A DNA stretch of 64,000 nt from Candidatus Harrisonbacteria bacterium CG10_big_fil_rev_8_21_14_0_10_49_15. Its GTDB lineage: Bacteria; Patescibacteriota; Minisyncoccia; UBA6257; 1-14-0-10-44-23. Positions 2,203-55,160 of the stretch are shown piece by piece. The stretch spans positions 25,667-89,666 of the forward strand of contig PFBD01000020.1 of the NCBI GenBank assembly GCA_002773415.1, read 5' to 3'. The notes beneath the pieces were generated by a model, which was not told the origin of the DNA, ran no database searches, and saw nothing but the letters and a program-made list of their open reading frames with translations. Each line of letters begins with the position of its first letter. Position 1 is the first letter of the stretch. The translations under genes and the position numbers were made by a program.

Positions 2203-3573
2203 ATGAGAACGGTATTGGAAAAACTAAAAAAGGTGGCGAAGGGGTTCCCGGATAAGCCAGGGGTCTATTTTTGGCGGGACGCGAAAGGCAAGCCGTTGTA
2301 CATTGGCCGGGCGGGGAGTTTGAAAAAGAGGGTGGCGAGTTATTTTATCGCGAAAGATGCTCGGATTGCGGAGATGGTGTCGCAGGCGCGGAAGTTAGAC
2401 TATCAGCAGACGGAGACCTTGTTGGAGGCTGTTATCTTGGAAGCGAATCTTATTAAGAAGCACTGGCCGAAGTACAATGTGCGGGAAAAGGATGATAAGA
2501 GTTTCATCTATCTCGTTATTACTAAAGATCCTTCGACAAGCTCAGGACAGGGAGAATTTCCGCGCCTAGTCATTGTGCGCGGGCGGGAGCTGGAGAAATC
2601 CCTCCCGGCTATGCCGGACTCCCTTTGTAAAAGGGAGAATTATTCCTCCTTTATTAAAGGAGGTGGCCGGAGGCCGGAGGATTTTTTGGCGGTGTTTGGT
2701 CCGTATCAAAGCTATCGGATGTTACGAAAGGTGTTAGAGATCGTGCGGAAGATATTTCCGTTCGCGACGTGCAAGCCGGGAGTAGGTAGGGCGTGTTTTC
2801 ATTATCAGATTGGGCTGTGTCCGGGCGTGTGTATCGGGGCTGCGGATAAAAAAGAGTATCAAAAGACAATAAAAAACTTAATCCTGTTTTTCCGGGGCGA
2901 TAAGAAACGGTTGCTGGCGAAGTTGAAAAAAGAGAATGTTGAGGCAGTGGTCGCGCTGAAGCATATTAACGATGTGGCACTGCTTGCGGAGTCGGATTCT
3001 TTTGTGCGTGGTTCGACTGCGCTTACCACAAGGCGGATTGAGGGCTATGACATTAGCCATTCGGCCGGGAAGGAGGCAGTGGGGGCGATGGTTGTTTTTG
3101 AGAATGGGGAGGCGGATACGTCTCAATATCGGCTATTTAAGATAAGGGGCGATATTGAGGAGGTAAGAGGTAAGAGCAAAGAGGTAAGAAGGGGGTATAC
3201 GCAGGACGATATCGCGATGTTGAAGGAGGTGGTGAGTCGGAGACTAAAGCATACCGAGTGGCCGGCGCCGGATATTGTGTTTGTGGATGGGGGAGCGAAT
3301 CAGGTGCGGGCGGTGGTGGCAGTGCTGAAACAGGCAAATGTGTATGTGCCGGTTGTGGGTTTATCAAAAGGCGGCAAGCACGCCGGAAGTGCATATGCGA
3401 CGGATAAGCTAGTAATTGCTAATGCTAAGCCGGTTGGTAGAGAACTGCTGGCCGGTTCGAAGAAGTTGTTTCAAGAAGTGCGGAACGAGGCGCATCGGTT
3501 TGCGATTAGTTTTCATAGAAAACGAACACGGATAAACACGGATAGGAAACGGATGAGCACGGATAAAAAATAG
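2203..3573 (+). CDS. uvrC: Excinuclease ABC subunit C (UvrC), short form (456 aa) lacking the C-terminal RNase H/HhH region. Contains family-A and family-B in-frame repeats
   Basis: GIY-YIG N-terminus (GVYFWRDAKGKPLYIGRAGSLKKRVASYF), a UvrC homology region, and EAHRFAISFHRKR near the end. Confidence 0.85.
   Translation: MRTVLEKLKKVAKGFPDKPGVYFWRDAKGKPLYIGRAGSLKKRVASYFIAKDARIAEMVSQARKLDYQQTETLLEAVILEANLIKKHWPKYNVREKDDKSFIYLVITKDPSTSSGQGEFPRLVIVRGRELEKSLPAMPDSLCKRENYSSFIKGGGRRPEDFLAVFGPYQSYRMLRKVLEIVRKIFPFATCKPGVGRACFHYQIGLCPGVCIGAADKKEYQKTIKNLILFFRGDKKRLLAKLKKENVEAVVALKHINDVALLAESDSFVRGSTALTTRRIEGYDISHSAGKEAVGAMVVFENGEADTSQYRLFKIRGDIEEVRGKSKEVRRGYTQDDIAMLKEVVSRRLKHTEWPAPDIVFVDGGANQVRAVVAVLKQANVYVPVVGLSKGGKHAGSAYATDKLVIANAKPVGRELLAGSKKLFQEVRNEAHRFAISFHRKRTRINTDRKRMSTDKK
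2530..2551. repeat. In-frame mini-repeat (family B), ccttcgacaagctcaggacagg, inside uvrC
   Basis: Near-identical 22-25-mers occur in nfo (6884-6908) and typA (28129-28153). All are in-frame and encode (T)RST(S/G)SGQ(A/G). Confidence 0.7.
2596..2687. repeat. In-frame nested-palindromic element (family A), copy 2, inside uvrC. Module order A-B-C with terminal inverted repeats aatccctcccgg / ccggaggatt
   Basis: Read directly from the sequence. Encodes SLPAMPDSLCKRENYSSFIKGGGRRPEDF. Confidence 0.8.
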
Positions 3574-3608
3574 CCCGAGCGCGAGGAGTGGTTACCTGCG
3601 CTCGGGCT
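3574..3608. terminator. Hairpin terminator after uvrC (gcccgagcgc...gcgctcgggc)
   Basis: 10-bp GC stem. Confidence 0.5.
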
Positions 3609-3715
3609 GCCAGTTGCTACTAGGCCTCTCCCAGTGTCTATGCGCTCTGTAGCGCAATCACAGGGATAGTAGCAGCTGCCCTTTGCGCCTCCGTAGGGGG
3701 CGCGGCCCGGCTTGG

Positions 3716-3859
3716 CTACCTGGCGTTGCGACGCAGCGAGCTGGAGTTGCTCACGACGCGCTTGGAATCGCTTCCGACGCCAGCGCGACCGGACTCGCTT
3801 CCGACTCCGGCGCGGCTGAACGTGTTGGCTCGGCGACTGTAGATGACTTTGTTGGTCAT
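3716..3859 (-). CDS. Gly/Ser-rich micro-ORF (47 aa), tandem copy 1. Preceded by the conserved leader caacccccacGgagttgggagaaaggagaa
   Basis: ATG with SD ggagaaaggag. Peptide MTNKVIYSRRANTFSRAGVGSESGRAGVGSDSKRVVSNSSSLRRNAR. Lies in a GC-rich islet. Confidence 0.45.
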   Translation of the reverse strand: MTNKVIYSRRANTFSRAGVGSESGRAGVGSDSKRVVSNSSSLRRNAR

Positions 3860-3949
3860 CTGGCTTCTCCTTTCTCCCAACTCCGTGGGGGTTGCGCCGT
3901 GAAAGGGAGTTCCACGGCTGTGCCTAGGTTCGTGACGTCAGCCGCGGGC

Positions 3950-4132
3950 TCACCCGTCCAGGGTGGTGCAGGCGCGACTGTACGTCGTCACGGCTCGGCG
4001 GAGGTTGTTGGTGTCGAGGCCGCGTCCCGAGTTGGACGAGCCACTCCGGTCGGAGTTCACGCCGCCGCTCTGGATCTTCCCGCCGTCCATGATCCCGCCC
4101 CGGGCGATGCCGTGGTCTTTGATCGGATTCAC
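3950..4132 (-). CDS. Gly/Ser-rich micro-ORF (60 aa), tandem copy 2, GTG start. Same conserved leader as copy 1
   Basis: Leader caacccccacAgagttgggagaaaggagaaagcaGTG. The C-terminal ..NNLRRA.. motif is shared with copy 1. Confidence 0.45.
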   Translation of the reverse strand: MNPIKDHGIARGGIMDGGKIQSGGVNSDRSGSSNSGRGLDTNNLRRAVTTYSRACTTLDG

Positions 4133-4261
4133 TGCTTTCTCCTTTCTCCCAACTCTGTGGGGGTTGTGCGGCTCTGGGAGCCGCGAGTCCAGTTTTTATG
4201 ATATAGGAAAAAAGCGTAGCTGGAAAGATAGTTCCGGAATTCTACGGACGCGCTTTGCGCG

Positions 4262-4738
4262 TTAGCCTTTGATGTCTACTTCGCCGTCAACTAGCGGACT
4301 GGTCGCGACTTGGAAGCGCATGGTGACTACGGCGCCGCTGGTGTCTTGGGCTGGGGCGTCGGTGGCGGCGGAGAAGATGCCATTGCCGTCGTCAACGTGG
4401 AGCATGGCGTGGTAGGAGGCGCCGGCAGTGGTGGACATGACGATAGAGACGTTTTGGTGAATGCCCGGTTGGAGAAGCTTGCTACTTGCGACGATGTCGT
4501 CAGGGGCGCCGTTGCTATCGGCGTGGATGACAACAAATCCTGGCTGGGTGAGCTCTACTTGGTCAACCACAACCGCGACTTTACTTGGGTCTTGCAGGCC
4601 GATGGTCAGGCTGTTGGCTTCGGCAGTCGTGGCTACCTCCTCAGTTGGTGCGCCGGAGCGGGTGAACATAAATATTAAAAGAGCGACGACTACGATGGCA
4701 ACGATTATCCAGAAGACTGTTTTATTTTTATTCTCCAT
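4262..4738 (-). CDS. Secreted/membrane-anchored hypothetical protein (N-terminal TM helix)
   Basis: N-terminus MENKNKTVFWIIVAIVVVALLIFMF. The ORF is followed by the hairpin cgcgcaaagcgcg. Confidence 0.6.
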   Translation of the reverse strand: MENKNKTVFWIIVAIVVVALLIFMFTRSGAPTEEVATTAEANSLTIGLQDPSKVAVVVDQVELTQPGFVVIHADSNGAPDDIVASSKLLQPGIHQNVSIVMSTTAGASYHAMLHVDDGNGIFSAATDAPAQDTSGAVVTMRFQVATSPLVDGEVDIKG

Positions 4739-4804
4739 ACATGTATTTAATTACTTATTTAAAGGTAGTATACCACTGCCCTGAGTGAAAAAGAAATGAA
4801 GAAT

Positions 4805-5743
4805 TTAGGGCTGAATGCGGAGGCGATAGGTGACTTCGCGAATATTGCGGAGCACAGAATCCTGTTCATAATCGTCGGTTATACGGATGTTTTGATTTCG
4901 GGATTTATCTTTAACGATCTCCTGGATGAGTGCTTTGAGGGTGCTGACTCGATCTAAGAGAAGTTGTTGATCTTTTGTGAGGGTGCGCTTGCTGAATACT
5001 TCTTCATAAAAATCGAGTTGGACCTCAATTTGTTTTAGGAAGACTATCTGGGCCGGGTGGTTCTCGATCGCGGTCCGACGTTCTAAAAATTTTTCTTGTA
5101 GTGCTGGTGTTCTATTCTTATTTTCTTGGAGACGGATAAGCTCTGAAAGGAGATCAATAAGTTCTTTGCAGTGCTGAGTATCAAGCCCGATCACTACAGG
5201 AACAATACCATCTAGTGATCCTCTGAAATCATCAGCCAAAGAGGCAAAGTATTTCACTCTAGTTTCGGGTTTCTCGTTTAGTATTTTGCGGAGGTTGCGC
5301 TCTATTTTTTTGGTGATTATGGTTTGATCGGCCGCGCGAGTAGCGTCAATTGCGAGCGCCATGCGTTCGAATATTTCTTCATTTGTGAATTCTGCGACCG
5401 CATCAACGCCATTTCGGATATCGTCATGTGCGGATGTGCGGACGATCTCTGTTGTAAGACCAAGCCAGGCACTTCTGCGGGTTTGATCTATGACTATTCC
5501 TTCCAGCGCTTTGCTTATCTGTTCGCTGTCTGCGATAACTTCTCTATCCTTGAATTGATGTTCAAGGTGATTGGCATCGGCTATGTCGCGTTCAATCTCT
5601 TCCGCGGGAAAGATGTCTGTAAAATCTCTTGGATCTAGTCTCGGATATTCTTTCTTTACGTATTGAGTGACAGCTTCGGCGTCCTTGAGGCGTTCGCGTT
5701 GCCTGTTTAAGCCGGGAAATTGATCTGGTTTCATATTACTCAT
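4805..5743 (-). CDS. Hypothetical protein (312 aa). Near-leaderless start behind a TACAAT box
   Basis: Long ORF at host-like GC. Upstream gctacaatgagtaatATG. Confidence 0.6.
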   Translation of the reverse strand: MSNMKPDQFPGLNRQRERLKDAEAVTQYVKKEYPRLDPRDFTDIFPAEEIERDIADANHLEHQFKDREVIADSEQISKALEGIVIDQTRRSAWLGLTTEIVRTSAHDDIRNGVDAVAEFTNEEIFERMALAIDATRAADQTIITKKIERNLRKILNEKPETRVKYFASLADDFRGSLDGIVPVVIGLDTQHCKELIDLLSELIRLQENKNRTPALQEKFLERRTAIENHPAQIVFLKQIEVQLDFYEEVFSKRTLTKDQQLLLDRVSTLKALIQEIVKDKSRNQNIRITDDYEQDSVLRNIREVTYRLRIQP

Positions 5744-5766: not shown

Positions 5767-5803
5767 AAAAGGCGCTTCCATGTCCGGCGGAAGCGCCCTT
5801 TCT
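5767..5803. terminator. Bidirectional rho-independent terminator (ggcgcttcc..ggaagcgcc with flanking T/A runs)
   Basis: 9-bp stem with U-runs on both strands. Confidence 0.6.
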
Positions 5804-5853
5804 GCGTGTGCTTGGCCTTAGCCAGGGGCACGAGCGGCGAGACCCCGCCTTTC

Positions 5854-6360
5854 TTATCGGGCTTTGGCGCCGCGTTTGCCAAGCTCGGAGAAGAGGTGGT
5901 GACTTATCTGAGCCCGACGCTCCTCGTTGCCCTTGCCATCCCAGTTGTAGTTGGAGAGGGTGTGATTGACGGCCTGGATGACATGGCTGTCGTGCGAGAC
6001 GTCGCTGCTTCTGAGGGCGTCTTGCTCACAGACCCAGGCCAGGAAACGAGCAGCCTGGTCGACGAGCTGGCGAGGCGAGAGGAAGGAGCCTCTTTTTGCC
6101 CAGTTGTCGTTTTTCCGCTGACCTCCCCGCTGCCGGACAAGGTACCCGATGGCGGCCTTGTAATCGTGGAAGGTATCGTCGTCGCTTGGCCCGAAGTGTT
6201 CGGAAACGACCTCTGTGATGATCGTGTCCATCGGGTTCTGGTCACGACCACGGACGGCGTACTTATCCAGTGCTGCGCGAGCAGCGTCCTGAACCCGTTG
6301 CTCGTTGATGAGCGGCGGCGGCTTCTTTCTTCTTGCGCTCACTTGGTTGCCCCCTGTCAA
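5854..6360 (-). CDS. Hypothetical protein in a GC-rich islet. Start is TTG at 6360 or the GTG 15 nt downstream (SD agggggc)
   Basis: 168-aa ORF in a ~63% GC segment. It has its own TATAAT box (rc of 6406-6411) and a downstream terminator. The overlapping plus-strand ORF 5806..7347 is a read-through artefact fused to nfo. Confidence 0.5.
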   Translation of the reverse strand: MTGGNQVSARRKKPPPLINEQRVQDAARAALDKYAVRGRDQNPMDTIITEVVSEHFGPSDDDTFHDYKAAIGYLVRQRGGQRKNDNWAKRGSFLSPRQLVDQAARFLAWVCEQDALRSSDVSHDSHVIQAVNHTLSNYNWDGKGNEERRAQISHHLFSELGKRGAKAR

Positions 6361-6427
6361 AAGACAGGAGTGTGCGCAGGTGAAGCAACCCAGTGCTACT
6401 TCTATCTATATTATAACATTTTTTTAT

Positions 6428-6459
6428 TTGAAAATCAAGGGTGGGACGTGTGGTACAAT
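6428..6459 (+). promoter_or_regulatory. nfo promoter: extended -10 (TGtgGTACAAT) with an upstream TTGAAA. Leader only ~6 nt
   Basis: Sequence ttgaaaatcaagggtgggacgtgtggtacaatggcgagATG. Confidence 0.5.
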
Positions 6460-6465
6460 GGCGAG

Positions 6466-7347
6466 ATGGCAAAGTTAGGCAAGCCACTTCTAGGCGCGCA
6501 TGTTTCTGTGGCCGGCGGATATGAAAACGGCATTACTGCGGGTGAAGCCATGGGCGCGGAAGTTATTCAGATCTTTGGCGCGAGCCCGCGGCAGTGGGCT
6601 GTTAAAGTTTCGAGTGAAACGAAGGTCGAGGCATTTAAAAAACAGTTTGCGACTAGTTCGCTGCAGGCGCTGTATTTACACGGCGCGTATTTGGTGAATT
6701 TAGGAGCGGCTAATCCGGAGGCGTGGCAAAAATCAGTAGCGAATCTGATCGCGCACTATCAGATCGCTACTCATCTGGGCGCGGATGGACTGATCTTTCA
6801 TGTGGGCAGCCCAAACGGAGACGATAAGCAGCAGGCTATGGACAGGGCTATTAAGGGTATGAAAGAGGTGCTGAAAAAAGTAACCCGTTCGACAAGCTCA
6901 GGGCAAGCCGGCAAAAGTTGGCTGATTATGGAGAACTCGGCGAGCCATAAAAAGCTGGGGGCGACGCCGGAAGAGATGCGGTATATGTGGGATGGCGTTG
7001 GCTCGGATCGGGTTAAGGTTTGTATTGATACGGCGCATGCGTTTGAGGCGGGGCTTATCATGGAGTACGCGCCGGCCAAGATCAAAGTATTTTTAGACGA
7101 GTGGGACGCGGCAGTTGGTTTGAAAGAAATTCCGGTGCTTCACGTCAATGATTCTAAGACCGCAGCCGGGTCTAATAATGATCGGCATGAGAATATCGGC
7201 GAGGGTTTGATTGGTAAGCAGGGGTTTGCGCATTTGGCTCGGGAGAAGAGGATGGCGGGCAAGCACTGGATATTAGAGGTGCCGGGATTTGACGGGAAGG
7301 GGCCGGATAAACGGAATTTGGATATTTTAAAGCGCTGTGTATACTAA
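6466..7347 (+). CDS. nfo: Endonuclease IV (Nfo, AP endonuclease family 2) with an in-frame family-B mini-repeat
   Basis: MAKLGKPLLGAHVSVAGGY..; the HVGSPNG and NDSKT..GSNNDRHENIGEG motifs. The inserted TRSTSSGQAG peptide is encoded by the repeat at 6884-6908. Confidence 0.85.
   Translation: MAKLGKPLLGAHVSVAGGYENGITAGEAMGAEVIQIFGASPRQWAVKVSSETKVEAFKKQFATSSLQALYLHGAYLVNLGAANPEAWQKSVANLIAHYQIATHLGADGLIFHVGSPNGDDKQQAMDRAIKGMKEVLKKVTRSTSSGQAGKSWLIMENSASHKKLGATPEEMRYMWDGVGSDRVKVCIDTAHAFEAGLIMEYAPAKIKVFLDEWDAAVGLKEIPVLHVNDSKTAAGSNNDRHENIGEGLIGKQGFAHLAREKRMAGKHWILEVPGFDGKGPDKRNLDILKRCVY
6884..6908. repeat. Family-B mini-repeat (cccgttcgacaagctcagggcaagc) in-frame in nfo
   Basis: See 2530 and 28129. 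Confidence 0.7.
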
Positions 7348-8197
7348 AAGCATGAATAAAAGGATTCTCTGGGTAGTGCTCATTATTATAGTAATCCTGG
7401 TTGTGGTCGGCTTTGTGTTGCCGGCTTCAGAGCGGGTGCCGGTTGAAGACCCGGCTGACGAAGAACCGCTTCTGCCGAGCGTGTCGGCAAATGGGAATAT
7501 GAAGGTGTGGTGGCCGTGGCCGGGAGTGGAGGTGATGCGCCCGCTACGCATCTTGGGCGAGGCGCGGGTATTTGAGAACGCGCTTAGTTATCGTGTTAGG
7601 AATAATTCCGGCGAAATAATTGCCGAGGGATTCACGACTGCGTCCGCGCCGGATATTGGTCAGTTTGGTCCGTTTGTCGTGAGTGTGCCATATGAGGCTC
7701 AGGCGGAACTCGCCGGTACGGTGGAGGTTTTCGCGCACAGTGCTAAAGACGGTTCAGTAATTGAGCTGGTGAGCATTCCGGTTAAACTGGCGCAAGTTGA
7801 GTCAACCGCCGTGGCCGTCTATTTTGGTAATGCAATTAGCGACCCGGAAGTGCAGGCATGTGAGCGAACTTATCCGTCCGTTCGGATAGTGCCGAAGACG
7901 ACCGCGGTGGCGCGTGAGGCGCTGGAGCAGTTGCTCTCCGGACCGACTGAAGTTGAGCAGGAGCTTGGATTTTTTACAAGTATTCAGGACACGAAAGCCG
8001 TGAAAATTCAATCCTTGACCATTAAGGACGGAGTTGCTACGGTTGATTTAAGTGCCGCCTTAAGCGCAAGTGCGGGCGGTAGTTGCCGAGTAGTCGCTGT
8101 CCGTTCACAGATCATAAATACCTTGCTACAATTTGAGACTGTAGACGAAGTAGTTATATCGGTTGAAGGCGAGACAGATGAAGTCTTACAGCCGTGA
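7337..8197 (+). CDS. GerMN-domain (spore-germination-like) lipoprotein/secreted protein
   Basis: N-terminal TM segment. The C-terminal region AREALEQLLSGPTEVEQELGFFTSI..VATVDLS is typical of the GerMN domain. Confidence 0.6.
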   Translation: MYTKSMNKRILWVVLIIIVILVVVGFVLPASERVPVEDPADEEPLLPSVSANGNMKVWWPWPGVEVMRPLRILGEARVFENALSYRVRNNSGEIIAEGFTTASAPDIGQFGPFVVSVPYEAQAELAGTVEVFAHSAKDGSVIELVSIPVKLAQVESTAVAVYFGNAISDPEVQACERTYPSVRIVPKTTAVAREALEQLLSGPTEVEQELGFFTSIQDTKAVKIQSLTIKDGVATVDLSAALSASAGGSCRVVAVRSQIINTLLQFETVDEVVISVEGETDEVLQP

Positions 8198-8273: not shown

Positions 8274-9125
8274 TTGGTAATTATTAATTCATTAATTAAA
8301 ACTATTATGTTAAAGAATATTATTTTGAGTGTTGCCGCGCTTGCGATTGCTTTGCCGGTCGGTGCGCAGACGCCGCCGCCACTCCGGGTGCGAACTGAAG
8401 CGCAGGCAGAGATGCGCGCTGAGACACGTACAGATGTTCGTCCGGTTCAGATGCACGCGGGAGAAGAGGTGCGCGTACAGGTGCGCATGGAGGGCGAGGG
8501 CGAGCTTCGCGGTGAAGCTATGCGAGAGCACATGATGGAAGAGCGGGCTATGATTATGGAGAATCGTGAGGCTCGTCGGATGGAGCGCACTGAGTTGCGG
8601 GCCGAGCACCGTACAGAGTTACGAGCGCGTGTGGGGGATTTGCAAGACGAGAAGCGAGCAGAGCGCGTTTTGAAGATCGATGAGCGGTTGGCTGCAATTA
8701 ATGAGCGGATGACGACTCATTTTTCTGAGAAACTATCTAAGCTACAGGATCTAACCCTTAGGATTGCCGCTCGGGCAGATGCGGCCGAAGAGAATGGTGC
8801 TGATGTTTCGACGGTGCGCGAGGCCTTGGCAAACATTGATAAGCAGGTTGATATCGCCCAGGAAGCTGTTACTGCCCAAGTTGGCATGACCTACGAGATT
8901 ACCTTTGAGAGCAGTGACACTCTGCGGGCGGATATTCAGGCGGTTAAGGAGGAGTTGCGCTTAGAGTTGGTGGCTGTGAAAGAAGCTGTGCAGGCCGCGC
9001 AAAAGACGGTCCGAGACGCGCTGGTTGCTTTGGCCGCGGTTGTTGATGCTCGAGACGATGTAGAGGTAGAGGTGGAAGCTGAAGCAGAGGTTGAGGTCGA
9101 AGAAGAAGTGGAGTCGGAATCATAA
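8274..9125 (+). CDS. Secreted coiled-coil protein with a Glu/Val-rich acidic tail
   Basis: Signal peptide, Arg/Glu-rich heptad-like region, C-terminal EVEVEAEAEVEVEEEVESES. Confidence 0.6.
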   Translation: MVIINSLIKTIMLKNIILSVAALAIALPVGAQTPPPLRVRTEAQAEMRAETRTDVRPVQMHAGEEVRVQVRMEGEGELRGEAMREHMMEERAMIMENREARRMERTELRAEHRTELRARVGDLQDEKRAERVLKIDERLAAINERMTTHFSEKLSKLQDLTLRIAARADAAEENGADVSTVREALANIDKQVDIAQEAVTAQVGMTYEITFESSDTLRADIQAVKEELRLELVAVKEAVQAAQKTVRDALVALAAVVDARDDVEVEVEAEAEVEVEEEVESES

Positions 9126-11643: not shown

Positions 11644-11653
11644 GTGCGAATCG

Positions 11654-11684
11654 GACCCGCGCGACGCTGTGCGTTGCGCGGGTC
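11654..11684. terminator. Hairpin terminator (gacccgcgcg...cgcgcgggtc) serving dus and the minus-strand micro-operon
   Basis: 10-bp GC stem. Confidence 0.5.
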
Positions 11685-11704
11685 CGTAGTCCTTGTCCGG
11701 GCCT

Positions 11705-11863
11705 TTAGTGGGCCCGGACCGGAGACGATTCACCCGAGTTCGGCACGGGTGAGTCCGAGGAGTGTAGTAGCAGGCAAAGCCCTCCTACTACAACCACAAT
11801 CGTCCAGAACCAGACGAGCAGCTTCATATACATCTGGCCGTCTCTGGACTCTTCTGTCGTCAT
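11705..11863 (-). CDS. Unannotated 52-aa single-TM peptide
   Basis: SD ggagaactagATG sits 16 nt after the upstream stop. Hydrophobic core KLLVWFWTIVVVVGGLCLLL. GC-rich. Confidence 0.45.
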   Translation of the reverse strand: MTTEESRDGQMYMKLLVWFWTIVVVVGGLCLLLHSSDSPVPNSGESSPVRAH

Positions 11864-11879
11864 CTAGTTCTCCTTGGGG

Positions 11880-12221
11880 CTAGGCGAACTCGAGTCCGGC
11901 CTCAAGTTCCTCCCAGGACATCGACCCCCCTGACTCTTCGTCTCGGGGGTCGGCCTCCTTTACGGGTCGACCGGCCGGCCGCCCGGTGGGGGCGGAGTAG
12001 CGGCGGTCCGTTCTGGGATGGGGCTTCGAGTCCAGGATCCCGCTTGGTGTTCTCGGCTCTCGTACGGTGGCGCGTTGTGTTCGGGCCAAGGTACCCTCCT
12101 CTTCTTTTTGCCAGCTGATGTAGCCGGCACCTTTCTTTTTATAGCGCTTGCATAAGGAATAGTCAAATAGCCAGTTCATTTTAGATAGTGGTACACTGGG
12201 TAATATATGCAATTTGAGCAA
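11880..12221 (-). CDS. Hypothetical protein in a GC-rich islet. The true start is probably internal (MNWLFDY..). Co-oriented with the micro-peptide gene
   Basis: ORF with GC-rich, Arg/Pro-rich composition. Its stop is immediately followed by the SD of the next micro-ORF. Confidence 0.4.
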   Translation of the reverse strand: MLKLHILPSVPLSKMNWLFDYSLCKRYKKKGAGYISWQKEEEGTLARTQRATVREPRTPSGILDSKPHPRTDRRYSAPTGRPAGRPVKEADPRDEESGGSMSWEELEAGLEFA

Positions 12222-16373: not shown

Positions 16374-16931
16374 ATGAAACTAGTTGTATTATTTGGACCG
16401 CCGGCCGTGGGGAAGATGACGGTGGCGCAGGAGCTGGCCAAGATAACGGATATTAAGGTTTTTCATAATCACATGACCATCGACTTGCTGACCAAGTTTT
16501 TTGAGTTTGGCAGTGAGCCGTTTCGAAAACTGTCACGTACTTTTCGTCGTGGAGTGATTGAGGAGGCGGCCAAAAGCAAGGTGAGTATAGCTTTTTCTGT
16601 AGCCTGGGATTTCAGCCAGTCTAGCGATACTGAAGAGATGAGGCATATTAAGGGTTTGGTAGAGAGTAATGGTGGGAGTGTGTATTTCGTGGAGTTAGAA
16701 GCGCCGCTTGAGGTGCGGCTGGAGCGAAACACGACGCCAAACAGATTGATGCATAAAGATAAGGCGAACGTGGCGGCGACAGAGAAAAATATTAGAGAGT
16801 GGCACAAGGTGTATCAGTTGAATAGTGCGCTAGGGGAGTTTCCGTTTCCGGAGCACTACCTGCGTCTAAGTACGGAGCATATGAGCGCGGCCGAGGCGGC
16901 GGTTGAGATTAAAAAAAGATTTGGTTTTTAA
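16374..16931 (+). CDS. P-loop NTPase / small-molecule kinase-like protein (AAA_33-like)
   Basis: Walker A GPPAVGKMT at the N-terminus. Size is 185 aa. Confidence 0.6.
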   Translation: MKLVVLFGPPAVGKMTVAQELAKITDIKVFHNHMTIDLLTKFFEFGSEPFRKLSRTFRRGVIEEAAKSKVSIAFSVAWDFSQSSDTEEMRHIKGLVESNGGSVYFVELEAPLEVRLERNTTPNRLMHKDKANVAATEKNIREWHKVYQLNSALGEFPFPEHYLRLSTEHMSAAEAAVEIKKRFGF

Positions 16932-16939
16932 AATGTACA

Positions 16940-16972
16940 GCGCCCGCCGAGAGAAGGTCTCTCGACGGGCGC
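16940..16972. terminator. Hairpin terminator (gcgcccg-ccgagagaaggtctctcg-acgggcgc)
   Basis: Nested GC stem. Confidence 0.5.
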
Positions 16973-16991
16973 CTGATTTGCGGTCGGCGCG

Positions 16992-17228
16992 TTAGGCGCC
17001 GGTGATTGCGGTCTTCAGGAACTCTTGAAGACCGCCGAAGGTGGTGACGCGCTCGGGTACCGGAACGCGTATGGCGCAGGGTACGCAGATGAGAGCCCAT
17101 CCCCTGGTGCCACGTCGAGCCCAGACCTTCGCCTCACAGCCCTTGTGGTGGCCGAGGGCTGTGTTCGGTCCTGGCGAGATCAAGGCCGAGGTTGGGGTTG
17201 GGTTGTGGAAGACGAGAATTTCTGGCAT
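16992..17228 (-). CDS. Doubtful Cys-containing small ORF in a GC-rich 280-bp islet. Its ATG is supplied by the IS terminal inverted repeat
   Basis: Peptide ..GHHKGCEAKVWARRGTRGWALICVPCAIR... The start codon lies inside the IS TIR (17224-17253), so the ORF is either created by the insertion or spurious. The region also contains strong hairpins. Confidence 0.2.
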   Translation of the reverse strand: MPEILVFHNPTPTSALISPGPNTALGHHKGCEAKVWARRGTRGWALICVPCAIRVPVPERVTTFGGLQEFLKTAITGA

Positions 17229-18481: not shown

Positions 18482-19663
18482 ATGCGGATAGTTTTGCACG
18501 TGGATATGGACGCTTTTTTTGCGGCGGTGGAGGAGCGGGATAAGCTGCGTCTTCGTGGTCGGCCAATTGTAGTTGGCTCTGATCCAAAGGCCGGCAAAGG
18601 CAGAGGTGTGGTGTCTACAGCAAACTATGCGGCGCGCAAGTATGGAATTCATTCGGCGTTGCCGATTACGAAAGCTTGGCAGTTATCACAGCAAGCCAAA
18701 AAAGCCGGGAAACCGGAGGTGGTTTTTATGGGCGTGGATATGGCCAAATACGCGAGAGTATCTGCGAATATCATGCAATATTTAGAGTCGCTAGTAACAA
18801 GTGGCGAGTGGCAAGGTGGAGCATTTGAGCAGGCTAGCGTGGATGAGGCCTACTTAGAATTTCCAATTTCCAATTTCCAATTATCAAACAATGATGAAAT
18901 GTGGCAATGGGCTGCAGAAAAGGCGGGGGAGATTAAGGCGCATATTAAACATGAGTTTGGGTTGACGGCGTCTATTGGCGTGGGGCCGAATAAGCTGATT
19001 GCAAAGATTGCTAGCGATCGCCAAAAACCGGACGGGTTGACGGTCGTGCCGGAAGAAGCTGTGCAGGATTTTCTAGATCCTCTACCGGTGCGAGTTATCC
19101 CGGGGATTGGACCAAAGGCTGAGGCGCAGTTGATGAGTTTGGGAGTTAAGAGAGTTGGGGAGTTACGAGGAATGCCAAAGGAAAAATTGCTGGCTGAATT
19201 TGGGAAGCATGGTGAGGGGATGTATCGCCAGGCGCGCGGTATCAGCGATAGCGTGGTCGCCCCGGGCGGGCCGGCTAAGTCTATTGGTCTGCACCGAACG
19301 TTTGGAAAAGATACCCTGGACAGTGTGGTGCTTATGAGCGAGCTCAAGGATATGGCGGCGGAGATTGGGGCCGATGTGGCGCGCGACGGCCGGCTGTACC
19401 GAACAGTTGTGCTGACAGTACGATTTTCAAATTTTAAGACGCAGACGCGGTCGCATACTTTAGAGGCGCCGGATAAGGATGTGAAAACCTTGGAGACTGA
19501 AGGGCTAAAGCTATTGATGCCGTTTTTGGATAGTCGAGAGAATCCGGGGAGGCAGAAGATACGGTTGATTGGATTGAGGGTGGAGAAATTTGTCGCGCAC
19601 GGCAATGAAGAAAAAGGAAGCATGAAAAAGGAAAAAGGAAATGCTCAGCAAGGGCTTTTTTGA
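18482..19663 (+). CDS. dinB: DNA polymerase IV (DinB, Y-family) with an in-frame insertion of an intergenic-type repeat (ISNFQLSNNDEMWQW)
   Basis: MRIVLHVDMDAFFAAVEERD.., SVDEAYLE. The insert DNA ttccaatttccaattatcaaacaatgatgaaatgtggcaatgg matches the intergenic repeats at 23772 and 46985. Confidence 0.85.
   Translation: MRIVLHVDMDAFFAAVEERDKLRLRGRPIVVGSDPKAGKGRGVVSTANYAARKYGIHSALPITKAWQLSQQAKKAGKPEVVFMGVDMAKYARVSANIMQYLESLVTSGEWQGGAFEQASVDEAYLEFPISNFQLSNNDEMWQWAAEKAGEIKAHIKHEFGLTASIGVGPNKLIAKIASDRQKPDGLTVVPEEAVQDFLDPLPVRVIPGIGPKAEAQLMSLGVKRVGELRGMPKEKLLAEFGKHGEGMYRQARGISDSVVAPGGPAKSIGLHRTFGKDTLDSVVLMSELKDMAAEIGADVARDGRLYRTVVLTVRFSNFKTQTRSHTLEAPDKDVKTLETEGLKLLMPFLDSRENPGRQKIRLIGLRVEKFVAHGNEEKGSMKKEKGNAQQGLF
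18848..18900. repeat. In-frame copy of the ttYcaatt/caaacaatgaa intergenic repeat (family C) inside dinB
   Basis: Compare 2183-2205, 23772-23860, 46985-47115 and 62836-62912. Confidence 0.6.
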
Positions 19664-19673
19664 AATGCGAAAC

Positions 19674-19707
19674 CCCCTACCGGAAGACGGGTCTTCTGGT
19701 AGGGGGT
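19674..19707. terminator. Bidirectional terminator hairpin (ccccctaccggaagac..gtcttctggtaggggg)
   Basis: 14-bp stem with one mismatch, immediately after dinB. Confidence 0.6.
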
Positions 19708-19732
19708 GCGATTGGTTGCGCTTGGCCGACAG

Positions 19733-20497
19733 TTAGTCGGCGCGCAGGATCTGCAGTTGCTCGCTCAGCGTCATCAGGAGGAAGAAGCTGGCGCTGACCT
19801 GTTCCAGGAACAGCTGGCCGAGCCCGTGGCCACGCAGTTCGGGCTGGGGATCTTCTGCGAGCCATGCTCCTCCCGGGGTGAGGACGTGTGTCTGCACGGC
19901 CTTGATTCGCTCGGGTGGAGCGACGAACTCTACCCGGTGGAAGTTGTTGCCATAGTGGTCGCGGTGGTTTTCCGCGGGTGGGCGGAGCCAGGCGGTGACA
20001 GCATTGCTCAGTTCGCCGCGGAAGGTCTTCTCGTCGTCGCGGATGTAGAAGTGGGCGGAGCGGCACTTCGCGTTCCTGGCCAGGAGCCAGAGCGTGTGGC
20101 CGGCCCTTAACTCTGCGGGCGGCGTCAGTGTCCTGGCTTGGGGGCCATGTTCAGATTTTGCCTGCTTGAACTGGGCGAGATAGTCCAGTAGCGCCAGCAT
20201 GGTGCCGCCGGCGAACTCGTTACTGAACTCGTCCGCGGCCTTGGTCTCGATATTGGCATCGAGGTGAGTGACGCTGTGACCGTCGGTCTCCAGTAGCGCG
20301 CGGATGACGCGACGGATTGGGCGCCAGCCGGGGCTTCGCGCGCAAAGCCGTATGATCTCTTCGCGAGCATCCTGGTTGTTGCCGTGGTCGGCGATGATCA
20401 GGACGGACCGCCGAGTGAGCCAGTCGTCAGACCAGCCTTTGCTGAGGTGATCTCCGAATTGTTCAACGGTGCGCCGCTTTTCCGAGTCTTGCATGTT
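19733..20497 (-). CDS. Hypothetical protein in a GC-rich islet. Contains an ..LIIADHGNN.. motif reminiscent of alkaline-phosphatase-superfamily metal sites (not assigned)
   Basis: Strong SD aaggaggactcaacATG at 20497. The track ORF starts further upstream at 20602, inside the palindrome. GC ~64%. Confidence 0.5.
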   Translation of the reverse strand, partial: NMQDSEKRRTVEQFGDHLSKGWSDDWLTRRSVLIIADHGNNQDAREEIIRLCARSPGWRPIRRVIRALLETDGHSVTHLDANIETKAADEFSNEFAGGTMLALLDYLAQFKQAKSEHGPQARTLTPPAELRAGHTLWLLARNAKCRSAHFYIRDDEKTFRGELSNAVTAWLRPPAENHRDHYGNNFHRVEFVAPPERIKAVQTHVLTPGGAWLAEDPQPELRGHGLGQLFLEQVSASFFLLMTLSEQLQILRAD

Positions 20498-20601
20498 GAG
20501 TCCTCCTTTCAAAGGACAGCGCCCCTTGCAGGGCTTGTTGTGCGGGGCAATGAGCCCCGGGCTGTCTGTAGCATGCCATGGGCTTTTGGCGTGTGTCAAC
20601 A

Positions 20602-39360: not shown

Positions 39361-39442
39361 AAGAAAGCTCGCTACTTGTCCAGCTGTGCTGGCGTAGACG
39401 GGAACGGTTCTTTGATTTGGGCTTAGGCCCAAGGAGCTCGGA

Positions 39443-39919
39443 ATGTCAGAGATTCTGCTCAAGGTCCCCAACGTCCGTCCCGGGTCCCTTGCCAAGCTGG
39501 CGGCTTTTCTCGAGAGTACCCAGAATAGGGTCTCTGAGCGGGACAAGAGCCCAATGGCTACGCTCGTGGTGGCGAAGCGGTACAGTGGCAACGACAACCG
39601 CTACGGCCTGACGCTCAAGGTGGAGTTCTGGTGCGATTCGGAGATCGGCGAGTACGTTTCCATCCCCGCAGCGCAGCTCCAGCAGATCTGGGACGCGCTC
39701 GGGCTGTATCCGAACCAGGGTACGGTGACGAGCGCTCCCGCGCAGATCGGCGATGGCACGCTTAATGTCGCTGTGGAGGCGGCCGAGAAGGCGGCGATCC
39801 GTGCGGCACTGGAGCAGACCGGTGGACACAAGGACGAGGCCGCAGCGTTCCTCGGAATCTCCCGGAAGATCCTGTGGGAGAAGTGCAAGGTCTACGAGAT
39901 CGATTTCGGGATCGAGTAG
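39443..39919 (+). CDS. GC-rich inserted gene encoding a protein with a C-terminal Fis-type HTH (HTH_8-like)
   Basis: SD aaggagctcggaATG. C-terminus AAIRAALEQTGGHKDEAAAFLGISRKILWEKCKVYEI. Inserted between rpsJ and rplC. Confidence 0.65.
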   Translation: MSEILLKVPNVRPGSLAKLAAFLESTQNRVSERDKSPMATLVVAKRYSGNDNRYGLTLKVEFWCDSEIGEYVSIPAAQLQQIWDALGLYPNQGTVTSAPAQIGDGTLNVAVEAAEKAAIRAALEQTGGHKDEAAAFLGISRKILWEKCKVYEIDFGIE

Positions 39920-40035
39920 TGCGAAGTACCCCATCGCTGACCGGGGAGAGAATAGGTCAGCAGCCACGCTGAAGCCCGCCAAAGGTGGGTGAAGCGGACG
40001 GGCTCGACAGTAGGAACACCCTACAGTCGAGCTCG

Positions 40036-53912: not shown

Positions 53913-54140
53913 GGCAATTATACCAGCATTTTTATTTTTTGCAATTGTCTATATTTGACCACATGTGCAATAGCCTGGGCACGGATTTCTTGACACGTTT
54001 GCCGACTTATTAAGAACACATGAAGAAGGCATTGACAAGACCACTAGACAATGCTAGGTTGATTGTTGCCTGGTTTTCTGGGCGTTTCTGATTTTTTTCT
54101 TTGGTTTTTCCGCCCTGGTGGCGGAGGAAGGAGCGGTGCG

Positions 54141-55073
54141 ATGAGCACTCGCTTTCTCGCCGCCTTGATGGCGGTTCTGGCTCTGGCTGCGATTAGCGTG
54201 GCTGGGCAGAGGATTCGGGCGGAGATCGAACTCCGGAATCCGAACGGGGCGGACTTGATCTTCAAGGTCGTCGTCGTGAACGCAGAGGATGGAAATGCCA
54301 AGCGAAAGCTGGCCAAGACTCGCATTCGCGGCGAGGGCGAGACTGAGCTCCGTCTTCGGGGCCGCGACTACTCCGAGAATTCTCGGCTTGTCGCCAAGGT
54401 TTCGGTGCGGCGCCGTGGTAAGTACTGGGATGCAGAGCTCGGGGAGATGCGTCGGCGGAACTGGTGGCCGGTCGCTGAGGCGGCGGTCCACGCTACCAAC
54501 GAAACCGGATCTGAGAGGATCCGATTCGTGATGGACATCCCTCTGCTTACGCAGATGCCGTTTGCCGATTTCGACGGCGACGGCGTGGCGGACGAAGACG
54601 ATGCCTGCCCGACTGAAGCCGGACCGGCCTCGAACCAGGGCTGCCCGGTGGACGATCCGGAGCCGAATCCGGCTCGTTCCGGCATCGTCTTGCACAACAT
54701 GACGACCGCCGGCACCATCTGGAACACGCCTGACGGGAGCAATCCCGCACGGTGTTTCCAGATAACGGAGGCCGGACACCCCGGTGTTCGGTGGACCTTC
54801 CGGCTGACCTCCGTCTCGGAGTTGCTGCCGGAGGACCTGACCTCGACGGATTCTCGTCGATGGCCGGTCCTGTTCAGCGAACAATCCCTTCGGGGGGCGA
54901 TGGGGGCGACGTTCCCGTCGTCCACTTCGTACCGGGAGATTTTCCGGCCGGAGAGCCCTCTTCTCTGGGAGTTCCAGGCCTTCGGCACCGATGTCGGTGA
55001 CGGGTGGAGCAACCTGGACTTCCACTGGGAGGAAGACACAGAGAAGTGGCTGCTGCACATCTACGTGCGGTAG
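54141..55073 (+). CDS. GC-rich secreted protein with a thrombospondin-type-3/OmpA-like Ca-binding motif
   Basis: SD ggaggaaggag, signal peptide MSTRFLAALMAVLALAAISVAG, then DFDGDGVADEDDACP. About 65% GC. Confidence 0.6.
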   Translation: MSTRFLAALMAVLALAAISVAGQRIRAEIELRNPNGADLIFKVVVVNAEDGNAKRKLAKTRIRGEGETELRLRGRDYSENSRLVAKVSVRRRGKYWDAELGEMRRRNWWPVAEAAVHATNETGSERIRFVMDIPLLTQMPFADFDGDGVADEDDACPTEAGPASNQGCPVDDPEPNPARSGIVLHNMTTAGTIWNTPDGSNPARCFQITEAGHPGVRWTFRLTSVSELLPEDLTSTDSRRWPVLFSEQSLRGAMGATFPSSTSYREIFRPESPLLWEFQAFGTDVGDGWSNLDFHWEEDTEKWLLHIYVR

Positions 55074-55160
55074 CCAGAGGTCTGCTTGAGCCTTGGCTCG
55101 GGCGGACAGCATGAGAGGGTCGGCAAGTTGCTCACGCGCTTGCCGGCCCCCTCGGAAACA

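Follow-up and report, generated by a model that had tools for sequence, protein, structure and literature searches.

A putative orphan small-protein operon with a duplicated translation-initiation element in a GC-rich islet of a Candidatus Harrisonbacteria genome

Results

Two small ORFs lie behind a duplicated 38-nt element

We analyzed a stretch of 64,000 nucleotides (nt) from contig PFBD01000020.1 (positions 25,667 to 89,666 of the forward strand; hereafter, the window) of Candidatus Harrisonbacteria bacterium CG10_big_fil_rev_8_21_14_0_10_49_15, a member of the candidate phyla radiation (CPR; Parcubacteria/Patescibacteria). The element studied here is a GC-rich islet of ~640 bases (3620-4260), the minus strand of which holds two small open reading frames (ORFs), pepA and pepB. 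The pepA ORF (3950..4132) starts with GTG and encodes 60 amino acids (MNPIKDHGIARGGIMDGGKIQSGGVNSDRSGSSNSGRGLDTNNLRRAVTTYSRACTTLDG), and pepB (3716..3859) encodes 47 amino acids from an ATG (MTNKVIYSRRANTFSRAGVGSESGRAGVGSDSKRVVSNSSSLRRNAR). The GC fraction was 0.624 in 3620-4260 and 0.646 in 3609-4190, compared with 0.493 for the window (standard deviation 0.054 in 300-nt windows). The islet is the highest-GC stretch of the window, which contains at least eight other stretches with a GC fraction of 0.60 or higher. A first-pass annotation had described a compositionally distinct islet of ~63% GC in a host of ~47%; the islet value was borne out, whereas the host value was lower than that measured in the window.

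A direct repeat of 38 nt was found at 3860-3897 and 4132-4169, in which 34 of 38 positions are identical (89%) and the copies are spaced by 272 nt. On the minus strand, copy A (4132..4169) forms the leader of pepA, and copy B (3860..3897) forms the leader of pepB; in a mechanically generated ORF list, pepB begins further upstream, at a TTG (3880) inside copy B. Both copies carry a perfect AAGGAG Shine–Dalgarno (SD) sequence, which in copy A (GGGAGAAAGGAGAA) occupies 4139-4144, 6 nt before the GTG, and in copy B occupies 3867-3872, 7 nt before the ATG. The start codons are spaced by 273 nt rather than 272 nt because of a 1-nt indel between the SD sequence and the start codon. The 30-mer recognized in the first-pass annotation occurred exactly twice in the 64 kb, both times on the minus strand, and had no match in 100 shuffles, even with three mismatches allowed, which confirmed a near-identical leader before each of the two ORFs. 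The likeness between the two 272-nt units is limited to this leader and, weakly, the first ~6 codons.

Codon periodicity favors the minus strand

In the public annotation, the locus is occupied by a plus-strand ORF of 172 amino acids at 3683..4201 (NCBI hypothetical protein COU11_02205 / PIR87020.1; UniRef100_A0A2H0UKV9). Several assemblies call a 93-residue version of it (3920..4201), and others call the two minus-strand ORFs; assemblies of the same sequence therefore disagree on the strand. The plus ORF, pepA, and pepB share the same codon register and are read in exactly complementary frames, so one side must be the shadow of the other.

The GC fractions at the first, second, and third codon positions (GC1/2/3) were 0.56/0.57/0.90 in pepA and 0.50/0.62/0.79 in pepB, and the GC3 values were reached by 0 of 20,000 and 119 of 20,000 shuffles, respectively. 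The corresponding values of the plus ORF were 0.76/0.60/0.58. Third positions held C versus T at 37:3 in pepA and 29:5 in pepB. The GC3 periodicity began with each minus-strand ORF and ended with it, and no codon periodicity was detected in the 90-nt spacer, the 5′ untranslated region (UTR), or the 3′ UTR, all of which lie in or beside the plus ORF. Because 272 is not a multiple of three, the plus ORF reads the two repeat copies in different frames (0 and 2), as LASPFSQLRGGCA and CFLLSPNSVGVV, which suggests that the repeat is conserved as nucleic acid and not for the protein of the plus ORF.

Thus, pepA and pepB combine ORF-bounded codon-position periodicity with an SD sequence and a start codon at proper spacing, as protein-coding genes do. 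From the sequence, these two minus-strand ORFs are more likely to be coding than the plus ORF, which is probably a shadow ORF whose public annotation is a mis-call. The two minus-strand micro-ORFs with a shared, duplicated, SD-containing leader, as originally proposed, were therefore supported by the repeat, the ORFs, and the SD sequences. We also considered UGA read-through joining pepA and pepB, which are in the same frame with two TGA codons between them. This was rejected because long host genes are intact under genetic code 11, and hence the lineage does not recode UGA.

A promoter-like site and a terminator bracket the two cistrons

A promoter-like sequence, TTTCCA-17 nt-TATCAT, is located at 4198..4226 on the minus strand. 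It matched the consensus at 9 of 12 positions in a scan, from which promoter activity may be presumed, and lies in the sole AT-rich patch of the islet, with a predicted transcript start near 4190. At the other end, a predicted intrinsic terminator (3565..3608, minus strand) consists of an 11-bp perfect stem (3572-3582 / 3598-3608, 100% complementary) followed by UAUUUUUUA; its fold energy was -28.3 kcal/mol (z = -5.5 relative to shuffles). The U-tract of this terminator exists on the minus strand only, with none in the plus orientation, and the terminator abuts the stop codon of uvrC (3571-3573). No plus-strand sigma-70-like site was found in 3400-4900 by the consensus scan, which may miss one.

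Two near-palindromic GCGCAAAG(C/G)GC hairpins, each joined to CCGUAG/CUACGG, are located at 3678-3696 and 4242-4260. They form an 11/12 inverted repeat that flanks both cistrons and the promoter-like site near the islet edges, at a level expected by chance in a GC-rich region. Terminal inverted repeats of a mobile element (3685-3696 / 4242-4253, 11/12) were accordingly rejected: ten such pairs occur in the region, which is the chance level, and the right arm is off the islet boundary.

Predicted RNA structure of the leaders and the transcript

The first-pass annotation had drawn the leader hairpin from the strings CCCAAC and GTTGGG, but these do not occur in hairpin order. The fold prediction gave a different hairpin, CAACC..GG(A)GUUG, of 5 bp with a bulge, which in copy A appears as the small hairpin CAACC..G(A)GUUG. 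The GC hairpin reported further upstream is present in unit A, at 4168..4184 on the minus strand (GCGGCUC-CCA-GAGCCGC); both the minimum free energy (MFE) and the centroid structure predicted for the segment with leader A (z = -2.65) contain it. This hairpin includes a CUCCC pentamer resembling an anti-SD sequence.

The SD sequence of leader A was predicted to be about half open. In leader B, the SD sequence had a mean probability of 0.12 of being unpaired and was predicted, from the single sequence, to pair with the upstream anti-SD tract UCCCUUUC (3901..3908, minus strand; pair probabilities 0.4-0.98). The predicted partner of this pyrimidine tract is GAAAGGAG, and the pepB ATG is predicted to lie inside a 7-bp hairpin, AGAUGAC/GUCAUCU. 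Across temperatures from 10 to 45 °C, the predicted opening was negligible (probability unpaired, 0.08 to 0.15). Directly 3′ of the pepA stop codon, an intercistronic 9-bp hairpin, CCGCGGCUG..CAGCCGUGG (3912..3947, minus strand), was predicted; it has no U-tract.

Taken as a whole, the ~640-nt RNA is predicted to fold more stably than its shuffled versions (z = -6.1). Three segments account for this excess: the terminator, the pepB body (z = -4.0), and the GC-rich structured 3′ UTR (3609..3715, minus strand; MFE -49 kcal/mol, z = -3.0), in which GC by codon position is flat. The fold of the pepA body is ordinary (z = +0.13).

The peptides are hydrophilic, basic, and mutually unalignable

Both predicted peptides are rich in Gly, Ser, Arg, and Asn, and this composition and an LRR tripeptide are all that they share. 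The isoelectric point (pI) is 9.8 for PepA, which is hydrophilic, and 12.0 for PepB; the grand average of hydropathy (GRAVY) is -0.72 and -0.77, respectively, and neither contains a hydrophobic or membrane segment. BLASTP gave no alignment between them at E<=100, and their Smith–Waterman score (26) was below the shuffle mean (28.3); the idea that the two are paralogous was therefore not upheld. A 27-nt tandem repeat in pepB (3757-3810) encodes AGVGSESGR/AGVGSDSKR. PepB lacks Cys, and the C terminus of PepA, TTYSRACTTLDG, contains Ser/Thr/Cys. Trypsin would cut PepB into peptides that are for the most part very short. In single-sequence AlphaFold models, PepA was coil with a C-terminal helix at residues 41-59 (predicted local distance difference test [pLDDT] score, 68), and PepB was coil with a short C-terminal helix (pLDDT 71).

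Searches for homologues, families, and further leader copies

No match to pepA, pepB, or the plus ORF was found in Pfam, NCBIfam, PHROGs, or PADLOC, and for the peptides, Pfam and NCBIfam yielded nothing even at E<=10, including PF10685 of the KGG-repeat/hydrophilin type. Searching by tblastn with pepA, pepB, and the plus ORF in 80 related loci returned nothing, and pepA had no match in IMG/VR. The plus ORF forms a 90% cluster with its own variants only (UniRef100 n = 1). Islet-like DNA, leader matches, and peptide matches were likewise absent from the syntenic loci of 80 relatives and from two more contigs reached via UvrC homologues, and islet DNA had only chance matches of 30-40 nt to phage and plasmid records. 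Conservation in related genomes, which had been suggested as a way to choose between the strands, was thus detected neither for the minus-strand ORFs nor for the plus ORF.

At the RNA level, no Rfam 15 family reached its gathering score anywhere in the window; with the cutoff relaxed to E<=10 for 3400-4400, the matches were to eukaryotic or viral families (9-17 bits) and are attributed to chance. No tRNA or tmRNA was found. A 22-nt leader pattern had 0 matches in 596 Gb of GTDB species representatives and 0 in IMG/VR. In JGI metagenomes, it was found only at this locus (L010, identical), a weak negative because the scan missed at least three other JGI contigs that carry the pattern (L003, L004, and L005). 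A covariance model built from the two leaders scored 63 bits for leader A and 66 bits for leader B; in 960 kb (the window and 82 related loci), it recovered the training copies only, with the next best hit at E=0.55. Recurrence of the leader outside the locus was therefore not seen.

Two known regulatory elements were tried and rejected. The NAD+-I (nadA) riboswitch was considered because ACAACCCC in leader A resembles its ACANCCCC motif; however, Rfam includes this family and gave no match, the sequence in copy B is GCAACCCC, and the two units, with 272 nt between them, are not arranged as adjacent domains. GGA sites of the CsrA type were dismissed because copy A has no loop GGA (ACAGAG).

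The islet occupies a variable site between conserved genes

The genes within ±5 kb encode UvrA, UvrC, DUF7282, an unknown 312-residue protein, AP_endonuc_2 (AP-endonuclease-2 fold), Gmad2/Germane, and TSP3_bac. No peptide-maturation enzyme was found within ±5 kb or among the 25 listed of the 70 Pfam families of the 49 window ORFs, all 25 of which are of housekeeping types. The order uvrA-uvrC-X-DUF7282(-)-...-AP_endonuc_2 is kept in about 8 relatives. There, X is a plus-strand S-adenosylmethionine (SAM)-methyltransferase-like gene, an fn3 protein, unknown proteins of 128 and 438 amino acids, or a second copy of DUF7282; the islet takes this place in the window. Because X varies among relatives, the uvrC-DUF7282 interval is, judging by gene order, a hypervariable spot. 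No remnant of the relatives' methyltransferase gene was found in the window.

Copies of the locus from at least nine contigs in several samples were identical or one single-nucleotide polymorphism (SNP) apart. Contigs with the locus came from ERZ272933xx and from JGI 3300025018, 3300025150, and 3300004210. The single SNP in the islet, at window position 3825 (N12S in pepB), is uninformative, as it affects a second codon position whichever strand is read. The assembly of JGI sample 3300025150 is broken within pepA, with one contig ending at window position 4052 and another starting at 4044, and three ENA samples contain only contigs of 586-944 nt that cover just the islet. These breaks and short contigs could reflect low coverage or strain heterogeneity.

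Other GC-rich patches of the window and of relatives

Another self-contained GC-rich small-ORF islet is present at 11650-12170 (minus strand). It has a sigma-70-like TTGACT-17-TATAAA near 12165-12135, a ~270-nt GC-rich 5′ UTR, and a 52-residue ORF, 11705..11863(-), MTTEESRDGQMYMKLLVWFWTIVVVVGGLCLLLHSSDSPVPNSGESSPVRAH, whose ATG (11863) follows a perfect AAGGAG at a distance of 6 nt. This ORF has no family match and encodes one hydrophobic transmembrane-like segment, and a GC hairpin lies 3′ of it at about 11650-11683. By its sequence, this islet looks more like a type I toxin locus than the pepA/pepB locus does. At 16992..17228(-), there is a GC-rich orphan ORF of 78 amino acids (GC3 0.71), followed by a strong hairpin at ~16940-16975 that also closes the convergent plus-strand gene 16374..16931.

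Further patches with a GC fraction of at least 0.60 are located at 5801-6350, 8351-8650, 19651-20600, 30601-30900, 39401-40000, and 54101-55150. Three high-GC3 ORFs with a perfect AAGGAG occur in such patches: 39443..39919(+), a Fis-type helix-turn-helix (HTH) protein (Pfam E=1e-11); 19733..20494(-), 253 amino acids without a family; and 54141..55073(+), which matches TSP_3 weakly. A perfect AAGGAG is missing from core genes such as uvrA and uvrC. In the AP_endonuc_2 protein (5806..7347), the first ~200 residues are encoded by GC-rich sequence and are absent from the orthologues of relatives.

Three relatives with UvrC 59-62% identical (L092, L015, and L091) carry unrelated GC-rich insertions near DUF7282 genes. 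In L092 (2810-3170, minus strand), a 37-residue ORF, 2941..3054(-), with a GC3 of 0.92 is accompanied by a promoter-like region, a 5′ hairpin, an AACCCACAGGAGGG SD sequence, and a terminator. L015 (8830-9130, minus strand) has a 29-residue ORF, 9007..9096(-), with a GC3 of 0.93 behind GGGGAGAGGAGGA, and L091 has an islet of 63-68% GC at 7000-7400. A leader likeness seen in L015 and L092 (a hairpin, then AACCC, then an SD sequence) was supported by neither the covariance model nor MAFFT and was treated as generic.

Discussion

A proposed bicistronic operon

With moderate confidence, we interpret the islet as a minus-strand operon of two orphan small-protein genes that may have been acquired and in which both cistrons use a duplicated translation-initiation module. 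The operon would be a self-contained transcription unit of ~625 nt, running from the promoter near 4226-4198 to the terminator at 3608-3565. Each cistron would be translated from its own copy of the module, which may comprise an upstream C-rich anti-SD tract (CUCCC), the hairpin CAACC..GGAGUUG, a G-rich perfect SD sequence (GGGAGAAAGGAGAA), a 6-7-nt spacer, and the start codon. The module would thereby provide the same strong ribosome-binding site for both cistrons. In unit B, local pairing may occlude the SD sequence and the AUG, so that translation could be tuned post-transcriptionally. The two products would be basic, hydrophilic, and mostly disordered with a short C-terminal helix. Counting for this interpretation, the repeat is non-random, both ORFs follow a perfect SD sequence and bound the GC3 periodicity, and a promoter-like site and a terminator bracket the unit. 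In addition, other GC-rich islets of the window contain high-GC3 ORFs behind a perfect AAGGAG, one of which is a recognizable gene, that of the Fis-type HTH protein.

Outside the module, which is nearly identical in its two copies, the units either have lost all recognizable similarity or never had a common origin; this contrast suggests that the module is maintained as RNA. Given the hypervariable site and the foreign-like composition (GC3 up to 0.90 versus about 0.57 in host genes), the cassette was most likely acquired in this lineage alone or is a pair of young genes. From their composition (basic, Gly/Ser/Arg-rich, and predicted disordered), one may guess that the products are small nucleic-acid-binding or ribosome-associated proteins.

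Several observations weigh against a functional operon of this kind. PepA matched only itself, both among 5.8 billion proteins searched by word index and among 1.84 billion representatives scanned in full with HMMER, and PepB did likewise in the word-indexed search. The nearest UvrC elsewhere is 62-63% identical, and no close relative is at hand for an analysis of covariation or of nonsynonymous versus synonymous substitution rates (dN/dS). ORFs of 47-60 codons are not rare in DNA of 65% GC (~0.2-0.3 each, a base-composition estimate), and periodicity alone cannot tell a live gene from a recently dead one. In addition, the gene callers disagree, with NCBI and several assemblies choosing the plus ORF; an SD-like AAGGGAG is placed 10 nt ahead of the GTG at 3920 that opens the 93-residue version of that ORF; and the unusually good fold of the whole RNA would also fit a non-coding RNA.

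Alternative explanations

That last property leads to the view that the ~625-nt transcript acts as a structured non-coding or dual-function RNA, in which the 38-nt element is a repeated functional module (e.g., a protein- or RNA-binding site) and the ORFs are incidental or secondary. We regard this as unlikely. It would account for the excess structure of the whole transcript, the 3′ UTR, the pepB body, and the terminator, and for the fact that the leader, which is non-coding, is alone conserved between the units; a GC-rich island in a genome of 49% GC is also a classic sign of structured RNA. However, Rfam gave no match at gathering score and none that was meaningful at E<=10, no second sequence was found in which to look for covariation, and the pepA body has no excess structure. 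Moreover, ORF-confined GC periodicity and C-ending codons are unexpected for a pure non-coding RNA, and a perfect SD sequence occurs twice at the correct spacing.

It is similarly improbable that the islet is a non-functional relic, i.e., foreign or decaying DNA left by a mobile element or a high-GC gene in a variable intergenic site, with its periodicity and signals as leftovers. A relic would agree with the lack of conservation in every search, the hypervariability of the locus in relatives, and a foreign-like composition in a window that has many other GC-rich patches. It would not readily explain why the promoter-like site, two SD sequences, two starts, both frames, and the terminator have all stayed intact and follow one another in the correct order. 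Short of selection or very recent conversion, it is difficult to account for a leader that is 89% identical although its flanks cannot be aligned, and the sequence is identical or one SNP apart across the contigs and samples that contain it.

Very unlikely, in our judgment, is that the plus-strand ORF (3683..4201, or the 93-residue version from the GTG at 3920) is the real gene and the minus-strand ORFs are its antisense shadows. Beyond its annotation by NCBI and several assemblies and the SD-like sequence before the GTG, an ORF of 172 codons is unlikely by chance even at 65% GC, and G at its first codon position reaches 0.50. Nevertheless, the frame exactly complementary to a GC-rich gene with C-ending codons is expected to stay open because its stops correspond to the rare codons TTA, CTA, and TCA. 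The GC3 of the plus ORF (0.58) is below its GC1 (0.76), which is atypical for a GC-rich gene, and within this ORF the periodicity is lost in two places, 3860-3949 and beyond 3716. It also reads the repeat copies in different frames, begins with TTG and no SD sequence at 3683, shows no promoter-like site on its strand in the scan and a terminator U-tract on the other, and has neither a family match nor a relative in syntenic loci.

Finally, a cassette for a ribosomally synthesized and post-translationally modified peptide (RiPP), bacteriocin, or toxin, as the first-pass annotation had suggested, with PepA and PepB as precursors processed by enzymes encoded elsewhere or as small toxins, is highly improbable: tandem small Gly/Ser-rich ORFs with a common leader are reminiscent of multi-precursor loci and of the type I toxin genes found in tandem in Escherichia coli, and TTYSRACTTLDG offers Ser/Thr/Cys, but there is no match in Pfam, NCBIfam, PHROGs, or PADLOC, the neighbors and the 25 families listed out of 70 are of housekeeping types with no maturation enzyme among them, no double-glycine or other recognizable leader and no transporter are present, PepB has no Cys, no antisense promoter-like site appeared in the scan, and the hydrophilic, basic peptides have no membrane segment and are unlike type I toxins.

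Implications

As nothing similar turned up in the databases searched, we regard the locus as a real but ordinary orphan of the familiar lineage-specific small-ORF category, and not as a recognizable peptide-antibiotic or toxin cassette. If the micro-proteins are real, the public annotation of this metagenome-assembled genome is wrong here, an antisense shadow ORF of 172 amino acids having been called in their place, and the locus is a clean example of how GC3 periodicity and a repeat read in different frames can settle the strand of orphan small genes. The practical value of the locus lies in this strand re-annotation and in the curiosity of a duplicated initiation module before unrelated coding sequences. 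CPR bacteria have tiny genomes and are host-dependent, and small proteins that are specific to a lineage and encoded at variable loci could plausibly mediate such a lifestyle.

A bolder version is quite unlikely, although we set it out here: the 38-nt module would be an undescribed translational control element (an anti-SD/hairpin/double-SD switch responding to a protein, small RNA, or ligand) that co-regulates two orphan disordered basic micro-proteins, and the locus would be one of an unrecognized class of GC-rich self-contained small-ORF cassettes at variable sites of Harrisonbacteria-like CPR genomes. Members of this class may have their own promoter, a perfect SD sequence, a high-GC3 small ORF, a structured GC-rich 3′ UTR, and a terminator. 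Other candidates would be 11705..11863(-) and 16992..17228(-) in the window, 9007..9096(-) in L015, and 2941..3054(-) in L092, the last of which adjoins DUF7282 genes.

Comparison with known systems

The ldr, ibs/sib, and zor/orz loci of E. coli are tandem type I toxin-antitoxin loci. The islet shares with them tandem units, a structured conserved 5′ leader with a very small ORF, and predicted SD occlusion by upstream sequence. In contrast to their hydrophobic, membrane-inserting toxins, the peptides here have negative GRAVY values and are modeled as coil with a short helix of amphipathic length. They are hydrophilic, basic, and predicted to be disordered; in addition, no antisense promoter or RNA is evident at the locus, the coding parts of the units are dissimilar, and there is no sequence match. 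As for RiPP loci, no maturation enzyme adjoins the ORFs within ±5 kb, no known precursor family is represented, and the peptides share no alignable leader.

SD-occluding leaders, such as the fourU and ROSE RNA thermometers and translational riboswitch platforms, show the same on/off logic as unit B, with its predicted pairing of UCCCUUUC to GAAAGGAG and its AUG in a predicted hairpin. The differences are that Rfam gave no match, predicted opening from 10 to 45 °C is negligible, leader A is predicted to be half open, and an aptamer-like core is not definable from two copies. The locus falls in no Rfam family, and the recurrence that, with covariation, would mark a new cis-regulatory motif was not found in the genomes and loci searched.

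Hydrophilins and Gly-rich stress proteins (KGG-repeat, YciG, and GsiB), together with ribosome-associated proteins of the SRA/RpsV type, are small and basic or Gly-rich. PepA and PepB are likewise small, Gly/Ser-rich, highly hydrophilic, basic, and predicted to be disordered; this resemblance is compositional only, with no Pfam or NCBIfam match at E<=10.

The locus also resembles taxonomically restricted orphan small-protein genes of variable genomic islets: ORFs of fewer than 70 amino acids that are missed or assigned to the wrong strand by annotation pipelines, have no homologues and an atypical composition, carry a promoter-like site, SD sequence, and terminator of their own, and occupy hypervariable positions flanked by conserved genes. 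The pepA/pepB locus differs from these in that two cistrons with unrelated coding parts carry a near-identical 38-nt initiation module, and in its setting, a CPR/Parcubacteria host with several GC-rich small-ORF islets within 64 kb.

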